A stretch of 64,000 bases of DNA from Escherichia coli. Its GTDB lineage: Bacteria; Pseudomonadota; Gammaproteobacteria; Enterobacterales; Enterobacteriaceae. The position numbers and the translations under genes are program-made. The notes beneath the pieces are model-generated. The model was not told the DNA's origin and ran no database searches. It was given only the letters and a program-made list of their open reading frames with translations. Shown here piece after piece: positions 32,378 through 36,006 of the stretch (positions are counted from its first letter, which is position 1; every line of letters begins with the position of its first letter). Location: assembly GCF_003018115.1 (NCBI RefSeq), contig NZ_CP027457.1; one strand, given 5' to 3'.

Positions 32378-33051
32378 ATGCGTACCACATCATTTGCGAA
32401 AGTTGCAGCTTTATGCGGCTTGTTGGCTCTGTCTGGTTGTGCCTCTAAAATCACCCAGCCAGATAAATATTCTGGTTTTTTAAACAATTACTCTGATTTA
32501 AAAGAAACAACCTCGGCTACAGGTAAACCGGTTTTACGTTGGGTAGACCCGAGTTTTGATCAAAGCAAATATGACAGCATCGTCTGGAACCCAATCACTT
32601 ATTATCCGGTACCGAAACCTTCGACCCAGGTAGGGCAGAAAGTTCTGGATAAAATTTTGAACTATACCAACACCGAAATGAAAGAAGCGATAGCGCAGCG
32701 TAAACCACTGGTTACCACCGCTGGGCCGCGTAGTCTGATTTTCCGTGGGGCCATTACCGGTGTAGATACCAGCAAAGAAGGGCTGCAATTCTATGAAGTG
32801 GTTCCTGTTGCATTAGTGGTTGCGGGGACGCAAATGAAATGGCTACAGGCCACCGTACCATGGATACTCGCCTCTATTTTGAAGGTGAGCTGATTGATGC
32901 AGCGACTAATAAACCGGTTATCAAAGTCGTTCGTCAGGGCGAAGGTAAAGACCTGAATAACGAAAGTACGCCAATGGCTTTCGAAAATATTAAACAAGTT
33001 ATTGATGACATGGCGACCGATGCCACCATGTTTGACGTTAACAAAAAGTAG
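32378..33051 (+). pseudogene. ydcL: lipoprotein gene disrupted by a 5-bp tandem duplication (AAATG AAATG)
   Basis: Signal peptide plus lipobox (LALSGC); frame breaks at 32832-32841, so the ORF track splits it into 32378-32893 and 32839-33051; removing one AAATG copy restores one continuous 222-codon frame. Confidence 0.7.
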
Positions 33052-33068
33052 TTCCAGACGCGCCATCG

Positions 33069-33575
33069 TTAGATGGCGCTTTTTATCCGGTGCGCCGTAA
33101 AACCCCATCCTTCAGGGCGGGGATATAAGGCGCGGTTTTCCACCTGACCAGGTGTTTGCTGTTGTTCAATGTATTGGCGGATGACGGATATTGGCGCACC
33201 TCCGCAGCTACTGGCAAAATAGCCAGGACTCCACAAAACGCCTTTGTAGTAATACCTGACTGCAATATCTGGTCGATCTCGTCGCAGTAACCTACCCGAT
33301 ACGCCTTTGAGGCTGTTTACCAGACTGGATATCGCCAGTTTGGGAGGTTAGTTAATTAACAAATGGACGTGATCTGGTTCGCCATCCATTTCAACCAGTT
33401 CAGCTTCAAAATAAGCACATACATTTGAAAAGTAAGTGTGTAGTTTTTCTGTCGCGTCATGGTCAAAAATCTGGCGTCGGTATCTGGTGACAAAGACCAG
33501 GTGAACATGCATCAGGAAAACACAATGCCTTCCACGCCGGATATCGGTTTCTTTTTTCACAGACCAAAGTATCAT
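33069..33575 (-). pseudogene. tnpA: IS200-type HuH single-strand transposase TnpA interrupted by an in-frame TAA
   Basis: Minus strand reads ...MHVHLVFVTRYRRQIF...EPDHVHLLIN*PPKLAISSLVNSLKGVSGRLL...LWSPGYFASSCGGAPISVIRQYIEQQ...; HuH motif lies before and the catalytic-Tyr region after the stop at 33348-33350. Confidence 0.7.
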
Positions 33576-33582
33576 TTGACCT

Positions 33583-34791
33583 GTGAAACGATTACAGGCA
33601 TTTAAATTCCAGTTAAGACCAGGTGGTCAACAGAAGTGTGAAATGAGGCGCTTCGCAGGCGCATGTCGTTTCGTTTTCAATCGTGCTCTGGCACGTCAGA
33701 ATGAGAATCATGAGGCCGGTAATAAATACATCCCTTACGGGAAAATGGCTTCCTGGCTGGTTGAGTGGAAAAATGCCACTGAAACGCAATGGCTTAAAGA
33801 TTCTCCCTCACAGCCATTGCAACAGTCACTGAAAGACCTTGAGCGGGCTTACAAAAACTTCTTCCGGAAGCGGGCTGCTTTTCCCCGATTCAAAAAGCGG
33901 GGACAGAATGATGCATTCCGCTACCCGCAGGGCGTTAAGCTCGATCAGGAAAACAGCCGTATTTTTCTGCCGAAACTGGGCTGGATGCGCTACCGGAATA
34001 GCCGTCAGGTCACGGGTGTTGTGAAAAATGTCACTGTCAGCCAGTCCTGCGGTAAGTGGTACATCAGTATTCAGACAGAAAGTGAAGTATCAACTCCGGT
34101 TCACCCTTCAGCATCAATGATCGGGCTGGATGCTGGCGTGGCTAAACTCGCCACGCTGTCAGATGGCACAGTCTTTGAGCCTGTAAACAGTTTTCAGAAA
34201 AACCAGAAGACGCTGGCGAGACTTCAGCGACAGTTAAGCCGCAAGGTCAAATTCAGCAACAACTGGCAGAAGCAGAAACGCAAAATACAGCGACTGCATT
34301 CCTGTATCGCAAATATCCGCAGGGACTACCTTCACAAAGTCACAACGGCCGTCAGCAAAAACCACGCAATGATAGTCATTGAGGATTTGAAGGTCAGCAA
34401 CATGTCAAAGTCAGCAGCGGGTACGGTCAGCCAGCCGGGGCGCAATGTCCGGGCAAAATCAGGTTTAAACCGTTCGATACTGGATCAGGGCTGGTATGAA
34501 ATGCGCCGCCAGCTTGAGTACAAGCAGCTCTGGCGTGGCGGTCAGGTGCTTGCTGTTCCGCCAGCGTATACAAGCCAGCGTTGCGCGTACTGTGGTCATA
34601 CAGCGAAAGAGAACCGCCTGTCACAAAGTAAATTCAGATGCCATGTATGTGGATATACAGCGAACGCCGATGTAAATGGCGCTCGTAACATTTTAGCGGC
34701 GGGGCACGCCGTTCTTGCCTGTGGAGAGATGGTGCAGTCAGGCCGCCCGTTGAAGCAGGAACCCACCGAAATGATTCAGGCGACAGCCTGA
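33583..34791 (+). CDS. insQ: TnpB (IS605 OrfB family) RuvC-like RNA-guided-nuclease-type transposon protein
   Basis: 402-aa ORF; RuvC-like motifs ([24 protein letters not shown]) and Zn finger CAYCGH...CHVCGY. Confidence 0.85.
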
Positions 34792-34830
34792 ACGTAGCAG
34801 GGATCCACGTCCTTCAGGGCGTGGAGGATG

Positions 34831-36006
34831 TCAATATCGGTTTCTGTCAGCGATTAAATTCAACACCACGTAACAAACGCCTCCGGCAATTAATCCCCAG
34901 AACGCTGAACCAATCCCGACCAGCGTTAATCCACTTGCCGTTACCAGAAATGCCACCACCGCCGCGTCGCGCTCACGCTCATTATGCAGCGCCTGATACA
35001 AACTGCCGCCAATGGTACTTAACAGCGCCAGACCTGCCAGCATCTGGATCCAACTTACGGGCAGGGCAGCCATCATCCCGGTAATGGCACTACCAAACAG
35101 ACCTGCGAGCAAATAGAAAATGCCTGCAACGGCAGCGGCCAGCCAACGTTGATCTTTATCCGGATGCGCTTCCGGGCTTTGGCAAATAGCTGCGGTGATT
35201 GCCGCAATACCGACGGAATAAACGCCGAAAGGGGAAAAAACCAGTGCCAGCAATCCAGTAAATACAATTAATGGCGAAACAGGAGCCGAATATCCGGCTG
35301 CTTTCATTGCTGCGATACCCGGTGCGTTTTGCGATGCCATCGTCACCAGAAAAAGGGGGAGTGCAACGCTCAGGCTGTGAGCAAACGAAAAATCAGGGGT
35401 AATATAAGTGGGGAGAACGGGTTTAAAGACAACATCAGTTGTGACAACGTCACCTTGCGCGATAACGATCACGATCCCAATAATCATCGCGGCAATTACC
35501 GCATAGCGCGGCGCAACGGCCTTGGTTGCCAGCCATACCAGCAACATACTTCCACACAACGTAAATTGACAGTCCAGACTGGCAAACGCCTGTAAACCAA
35601 AGCGTAATAAAATCCCGGCAAGCATTGCCGCCGCAAGCGAGTGCGGAATAATGCGCATCAGACGAGCAAAGAGTCCCGTTATGCCGCAGAGGACTATTAA
35701 CGCGTTGGTGACAATAAAAACGCCGATGGCTTCGTTAAGTGTTAGTCCCTGCAATCCGGTGACCAACAAAGCCGCGCCAGGCGTTGACCATGCGGTGAGA
35801 ACAGGTACGCGATACCATAATGTCAGAGTCAGCGTACTGACGCCCATTGCCAGCCCCAGCGCCGTCATCCAGCCAGAGATTTGTGCAGTGGAGGCTCCGG
35901 CGACAATCGCTGCTTGCCAGATTATTGCCGCTGAACTGGCGTAGCCAATTAATACCGCCAGAAACCCCGCCAGTAGCGTGGGTGGAGGAACAGAAAACAG
36001 ACGCAT
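34831..36006 (-). CDS. ydcO: BenE-family (benzoate transporter-like) inner membrane protein
   Basis: Internal ATG giving MRLFSVPPPTLLAGFLAVLIGYASSAAI..., 391 aa, polytopic. Confidence 0.85.
   Translation of the reverse strand: MRLFSVPPPTLLAGFLAVLIGYASSAAIIWQAAIVAGASTAQISGWMTALGLAMGVSTLTLTLWYRVPVLTAWSTPGAALLVTGLQGLTLNEAIGVFIVTNALIVLCGITGLFARLMRIIPHSLAAAMLAGILLRFGLQAFASLDCQFTLCGSMLLVWLATKAVAPRYAVIAAMIIGIVIVIAQGDVVTTDVVFKPVLPTYITPDFSFAHSLSVALPLFLVTMASQNAPGIAAMKAAGYSAPVSPLIVFTGLLALVFSPFGVYSVGIAAITAAICQSPEAHPDKDQRWLAAAVAGIFYLLAGLFGSAITGMMAALPVSWIQMLAGLALLSTIGGSLYQALHNERERDAAVVAFLVTASGLTLVGIGSAFWGLIAGGVCYVVLNLIADRNRY

Follow-up and report, generated by a model that had tools for sequence, protein, structure and literature searches.

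An ochre codon in place of Tyr76 interrupts tnpA of the IS609 copy located between ydcL and ydcO in Escherichia coli, in which tnpB is intact

The 64-kb stretch of Escherichia coli DNA analyzed here, referred to as the window, includes the region tehA-tehB-ydcL-[IS]-ydcO-sutR, and the insertion sequence found there carries a complete tnpB next to a tnpA frame that is cut by a TAA codon. The locus raises the question of how the transposase gene was lost, whether the element can still move, and why a copy that keeps tnpB is so widespread at this site. A first-pass annotation made from the sequence alone had named the element IS609, and had proposed that a single in-frame nonsense codon leaves it probably immobile unless the codon is read through or suppressed, a condition that could explain a fixed copy that still keeps TnpB.

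The boundaries of the element were defined by alignment with strain MS7163, where this site is empty, and by comparison of five independent insertion sites. The left junction consists of CTTTTTAT followed by CCGGTG, and the right junction of GGATGTCAA followed by TATCGG. In the empty site CTTTTTAT is joined directly to TATCGG, and removal of the segment CCGG...GTCAA from the occupied site restores the empty site exactly. The right end terminates in TCAA at all five loci examined, and neither terminal inverted repeats nor a target duplication were found in IS609 in the empty-site alignment or at the insertion loci. Both ends fold on the same strand, with a TTCA loop in each. The name IS609 is upheld by 97.8% identity to the O157:H7 copy to which RefSeq gives this name, taken here as a proxy for the ISfinder reference. 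The features that define the element are the following.

33087..34834, plus strand: complete IS609 copy, 1748 bp, IS200/IS605 family, between ydcL and ydcO (empty-site alignment)
33083..33086, plus strand: TTAT target site, abutting the left end (seen at 5/5 distinct insertion loci examined)
33092..33133, plus strand: left-end subterminal hairpin, with the inner stem-loop CCCCATCC-TTCA-GGGCGGGG (DNA fold)
34804..34834, plus strand: right end, with a hairpin at 34804..34825, CCACGTCC-TTCA-GGGCGTGG, and the terminal TCAA at 34831..34834 (DNA fold)

All the defining features of the IS200/IS605 family that can be tested are present, i.e., a Y1 HUH TnpA, an accessory tnpB with a RuvC-like domain and a zinc ribbon, the ends, the target, and the hairpins. 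The genes tnpA (minus strand) and tnpB (plus strand) point away from each other, their start codons being separated by 7 bp, and TTAT would be the expected TAM of TnpB. The left-end hairpin of the window copy folds with -10.5 kcal/mol (z = -1.3), that of the O157:H7 copy with -18.6 kcal/mol (z = -4.1), and two stem pairs are broken in the window copy (A at 33107, which is G in O157, and A at 33128, which is C in O157). This cis site is eroding along with tnpA.

The insertion lies inside the stop codon of ydcO (34831..34836): the empty site reads AAC CGA TAA and the occupied one AAC CGA TA-T TGA, where the hyphen marks the junction, and ydcO consequently gains one Tyr and ends on a TGA supplied by the right end of the IS. 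Read on the other strand, the ydcO stop codon region yields the TTAT target, and this target is also part of the T-run of the ydcL/ydcO intergenic terminator, whose hairpin GCGCCATCGTTAGATGGCGC and T-run directly precede IS609 (33060..33086). Within ydcL a 5-bp tandem duplication was observed at 32832..32841 (AAATGAAATG versus AAATG in strain F9792), which shifts the frame and splits the gene of a 222-aa lipoprotein into two ORFs, 32378..32893 and 32839..33051. A 30-mer across this duplication was found in 0 of 5426 complete E. coli genomes, and the duplication is either a private mutation or a sequence error.

The tnpA frame starts at the ATG at 33575 and runs for 75 codons ending in EPDHVHLLIN before it reaches the TAA; the minus strand around this point reads GAA CCA GAT CAC GTC CAT TTG TTA ATT AAC TAA CCT CCC AAA CTG. 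Beyond the TAA the same frame is open for 92 more codons, PPKLAISSLVNSLKG...VIRQYIEQQ...SAI, up to a TAA at 33071..33069, which lies in the loop of the terminator hairpin. No frameshift was found in the window tnpA by translation across the stop. The following features are referred to below.

33069..33575, minus strand: tnpA pseudogene (translation; Pfam Y1_Tnp)
33147..33575, minus strand: homologous part of tnpA, 143 codons
33363..33371, minus strand: HUH motif, H69-V70-H71 (sequence; alignment to solved TnpA structures)
33348..33350, minus strand: TAA nonsense codon, Tyr76 to stop (window sequence and translation)
33171..33173, minus strand: catalytic tyrosine codon Y135, 3' of the stop (aligned with ISHp608 TnpA residue 127)
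33144..33146, minus strand: lost natural stop, CAG at codon 144, which is TAG in the intact 143-aa O157:H7 TnpA (alignment)

When the Tyr is restored, the TnpA amino acid sequence matches the Pfam Y1_Tnp model from end to end (1-121 of 121, E = 8.9e-41), and since this match spans the stop the two halves must be one gene cut by one codon rather than two ORFs juxtaposed by chance. TnpA also matches the solved structure of ISHp608, 2a6m (E = 2.4e-18), whose residue 127 we take to be the catalytic Tyr. The TAA is located six codons past the HUH motif and 59 codons before Tyr135. Translation and the Y1_Tnp match therefore agree with the first-pass annotation that an in-frame TAA, with no frameshift, separates the HUH motif from the catalytic tyrosine region. 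The description of this stop as single holds insofar as it is the only internal one in the window tnpA, but the natural stop of the gene is gone as well. Strain F9792 is a 100% match to the window across the whole element, and its identical sequence is called by RefSeq a tnpA pseudogene with an "internal stop". The Tyr76 TAA in IS609 tnpA is thus already recorded in public annotation, and it is a case of ordinary transposase decay.

The ancestral sense codon, whose identification the first-pass annotation had suggested as a check, could be established by comparison. TAT is found at codon 76 of MG1655 as well as of the intact copy from O157:H7, and Tyr occupies this position in all the homologues listed, including those from Salmonella, Morganella, Proteus, and Klebsiella, within the sequence HLLINYPPKL (INYPPK). 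The TAA in the window thus derives from TAT by a change of Tyr76 to ochre. To count the alleles in 5426 complete E. coli genomes we used 30-base megablast queries centered on the variable base, so that each 28-base seed must include this base. TAA at codon 76 was found in 1023 of the 5426 genomes (1103 places), among them O26, O104:H4, and similar strains, and TAT in 4890 (8130 places). The presence of the identical 30-mer in 1023 genomes indicates that TAA is an inherited polymorphism and not a read error. A sequencing or assembly error that hides a sense codon could produce just such a one-base difference, but these complete genomes were sequenced independently, F9792 matches the element in full, and the TAA allele has its own linked variants and a nested sublineage with a 5-bp deletion; the chance of an error is negligible, and for the allele as such the raw-read check proposed in the first-pass annotation is superfluous.

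The full ydcL-IS-ydcO arrangement is present in 4310 of the 5426 genomes, and the Y76* codon is not the only lesion that tnpA carries there. Besides the window, 13 copies at ydcL/ydcO were read, and in 13/13 tnpA is annotated as a pseudogene. The alleles found were the following.

Y76* alone: window and F9792; part of the 1023 genomes
Y76* with a 5-bp deletion (33460..33464): AST81, CUVET23, and 10159; 672 genomes
L96* (TTA to TGA, 33288..33290), K-12 type: MG1655, CX12, and WG5; 2600 genomes
E62* (33390..33392): Ec-042; 719 genomes
E62* with a 1-bp deletion: four further strains; within the 719 genomes

The insertion is common to lineages that carry TAT at codon 76 and must be older than the TAA, which consequently is not the reason for the fixation of the element, contrary to the possibility raised in the first-pass annotation. 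The TAA may nonetheless help the copy to persist, self-excision being impossible.

The natural stop is lost in all the sampled ydcL/ydcO copies and in several copies at other loci. CAG at codon 144 was considered as the ancestral state and rejected, since in other genera the homologous proteins are 138-146 aa long. As a result of the stop loss, the tnpA frame leaves the element via its left end and gains a tail specific for each locus; run-on variants of 168, 204, 213, and 222 aa were found among public proteins. Public data still contain an uninterrupted 168-aa TnpA (P0001) whose ydcL-side tail is the same, and its existence indicates that the loss of the natural stop preceded the nonsense mutations.

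To compare the two genes of the element, polymorphisms were counted in 16 copies, consisting of 13 from ydcL/ydcO, two from yedK, and one from ytfB.

tnpA: 5 synonymous, 13 missense, 3 nonsense, 2 frameshifts; pN/pS about 0.95
tnpB: 25 synonymous, 30 missense, 0 nonsense, 0 frameshifts; pN/pS about 0.34

Disruptive changes as opposed to all others are distributed unequally between tnpA and tnpB (Fisher p = 0.0016). If tnpB were disrupted at the per-base rate of tnpA it should have about 14 hits, and the Poisson probability of finding none is about 8e-7. The contrast between the two genes in nonsynonymous and synonymous changes has the expected direction but is not significant (Fisher p = 0.12). 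The ratio found for tnpA indicates that this gene evolves neutrally.

Other readings of the stop must be weighed against simple decay. The TAA could be a site of programmed recoding, where readthrough or suppression would yield a little full-length TnpA and rare transposition, and such a reading could draw on the frame 3' of the TAA, which is still open with no second internal lesion in the window copy, and on the occurrence of TAA alleles at more than one locus. However, the codon is Tyr in every relative, 672 of the 1023 TAA genomes carry a frameshift upstream of the TAA, the sister lineages have stops at other codons, and tnpA has a pN/pS close to that of a neutral sequence. Moreover, UAA is the least leaky stop codon in E. 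coli, and we know of no ochre suppressor in wild strains of this species. We consider the readthrough or suppression that the first-pass annotation had allowed for to be highly improbable, although the sequence alone would be compatible with a low level of natural UAA readthrough. In IS608 TnpA each active site combines the HUH motif of one subunit with the Tyr from its partner, and the assembly of active sites in trans across the dimer invites the thought that an HUH fragment and a separately translated Tyr fragment could reassemble into a two-piece transposase. A short ORF with a TTG start does exist 3' of the stop (33069..33236), but it begins at codon 114 and residues 76-113 of what is a single domain would be absent. 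There is no start codon close behind the TAA, and both the neutral ratio and the frameshifts argue against selection on the frame; we give this reading practically no credence.

A more serious alternative is that the nonsense alleles were favored by selection, TnpA being silenced, which would put an end to damage by excision and insertion, and TnpB kept for the benefit of the host or the element. The three nonsense alleles sum to 4342 genome counts, in which a genome with two alleles is counted twice, a number near that of the 4310 occupied ydcL/ydcO sites, and tnpB is undisrupted in 20/20 copies read, with a low pN/pS. Against it, the uninterrupted 168-aa version with the ydcL-side tail persists, clonal inheritance within phylogroups can account for the high frequency, and the independent events are few. 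Selection for the stops is in our opinion unlikely, although less so than the two preceding readings.

We regard as very probable that one TAT-to-TAA mutation pseudogenised tnpA in an old, vertically inherited copy of IS609 that is now non-autonomous. A single T-to-A transversion changed Tyr76 to ochre in the IS609 tnpA at the ydcL/ydcO junction. The predicted 75-residue product would retain the HUH motif without the rest of the single-domain fold and Tyr135, and such a truncated TnpA should provide no active transposase, leaving the copy non-autonomous. In this view, tnpA has decayed neutrally here in several independent events, the TAA among them. With its ends and tnpB retained, the element could be moved in trans by an intact IS609 TnpA from another copy.

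The distribution of the alleles bears on this last point. The claim that the element is immobile stands as far as the lack of its own transposase is concerned, but two further sites on the chromosome were found to carry the same TAA allele. In strains C21 and JNEC-KY176 a TAA allele with the 5-bp deletion adjoins yedK (L005/L006, 1534..3280), and this copy differs from the ydcL/ydcO copy of AST81 at only three positions. In strain 48956 a TAA allele without the 5-bp deletion splits a DUF3251 gene near nrdR (L017, 401..2154). The copies at both sites have proper TTAT/TCAA junctions, as does a copy of the E62* allele with the 1-bp deletion located near yidH (L020), and every dead tnpA allele occupies more places than genomes. 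In 1410 genomes the allele present has the natural TAG stop, as in the intact 143-aa form, and the gene is annotated as intact in O157:H7-type strains. The presence of the same TAA allele at other sites is most simply read as mobilization in trans by an intact IS609 TnpA. Gene conversion between IS609 copies, or recurrent mutation, could also have generated TAA alleles elsewhere without transposition. The weakened left-end hairpin may make the window copy a poor substrate even in trans.

No second IS609 or other Y1 transposase was found within the 64-kb window. Plasmid-borne TAA copies were considered as proof of mobility and discarded, the only PLSDB match being a 4.8-Mb record that is evidently a chromosome filed as a plasmid. 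K-12 has a single IS609 copy, with a dead tnpA, and in K-12 mutation-accumulation lines IS609 accounted for 0 of 758 new insertions (PMC5009759). The published view is that most tnpB elements have no tnpA, are non-autonomous, and move in trans (bioRxiv 10.1101/2023.03.14.532601), and the distribution of the dead alleles fits this view. Further variants of the element were also seen: at the ytfB site of some strains (L018, L019) tnpB is four codons shorter (Q399*), and in the same strains tnpA has no internal stops but has lost its natural stop. Among the matches listed are copies (hits H30-H33) in which both the left end and the tnpA 3' half are missing.

The observation that the element keeps TnpB was confirmed, as the tnpB ORF of the window copy is intact. 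The features of this side of the element are as follows.

33583..34791, plus strand: tnpB (insQ), 402 aa, intact (Pfam and alignment with ISDra2 TnpB)
34728..34850, plus strand: presumed omega-RNA region, 3' end of tnpB and right end (inferred from the family)
34835 onwards, plus strand: presumed guide template in the flank, TATCGGTTTCTGTCAG (inferred from the family)

The protein includes the Pfam domains HTH_OrfB_IS605 (PF12323), OrfB_IS605 (PF01385), and Cas12f1-like_TNB (PF07282), and shows homology to ISDra2 TnpB with E = 8.8e-55. In the alignment with ISDra2 TnpB, its residues D183, E267, and D363 fall on residues 191, 278, and 361, which we take to be the RuvC catalytic residues, and both CxxC pairs are present. 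TnpB may function as an RNA-guided nuclease. At the 3' end of tnpB and the right end no Rfam match reached the gathering score of a curated omega-RNA family; the segment 34718..34844 gave matches below this score to HgcC (22.2 bits versus 50, E = 0.021) and RAGATH-18 (25.4 bits versus 44.9, E = 0.067). The presumed guide, where it follows TTAT, matches only the empty ydcL/ydcO allele of other E. coli strains. Because tnpA was knocked out at least three times and the 2.8-fold longer tnpB was not once disrupted, it is conceivable, but in our judgment doubtful, that tnpB/insQ of this fixed copy is under selection independently of its own transposase. If this were true, TnpB could serve as a drive, cutting empty alleles that are incoming or recombinant and maintaining the insertion in the population; co-option of TnpB by the host would be the alternative.

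In this family tnpA is as a rule lost while tnpB is kept, and the finding itself is for this reason of little consequence; although Y76* differs from the K-12 lesion, the phenomenon, the element, and the site are already known. Its interest lies in that one insertion, present in about 80% of E. coli genomes, offers a clean and datable example of tnpA decay. The record comprises three independent nonsense alleles, nested frameshifts, the loss of the natural stop, and the erosion of a hairpin, with tnpB intact, and the contrast between the two genes can be used to ask whether selection keeps TnpB after the transposase is lost.

Comparison with known systems places the window copy at an early point of this process. 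The IS609 of O157:H7, located next to ytfB, is the same element over the 1748 bp, and its 143-aa TnpA (WP_000604943.1) is annotated as "IS200/IS605-like element IS609 family transposase". Both copies have divergent tnpA and tnpB, the TTAT target, and the TCAA right end, but they differ at codon 76 (TAT in O157:H7, TAA in the window copy), at codon 144 (TAG versus CAG), and in the left hairpin, which is fully paired in O157:H7 and has two broken pairs in the window copy. In MG1655 the same IS609 insertion occupies this position, with 99.1% identity to the window copy and an intact insQ. Its tnpA, presumably the pseudogene named insP in K-12, is likewise annotated as a pseudogene with an internal stop, although with TAT at codon 76 it was killed instead by the TTA to TGA change at codon 96. 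IS608 of Helicobacter pylori and ISDra2 of Deinococcus radiodurans also have a Y1 HUH TnpA with the catalytic Tyr on a C-terminal helix, subterminal hairpins, no target duplication, and insertion 3' of a short motif, and the window TnpB is related to the RNA-guided nuclease of ISDra2. The right end of IS608 is TCAA, as in IS609. The window element differs from these two in its divergent genes, in its target, which is TTAT and not TTAC or TTGAT, and in its dead transposase gene. It resembles the tnpB-only IS200/IS605 elements and the PATEs in that ends and tnpB are kept and movement would need a foreign transposase (10.1101/2023.03.14.532601). Unlike them, it has a tnpA remnant that is nearly full length, and it represents an early stage of decay rather than a deletion derivative.
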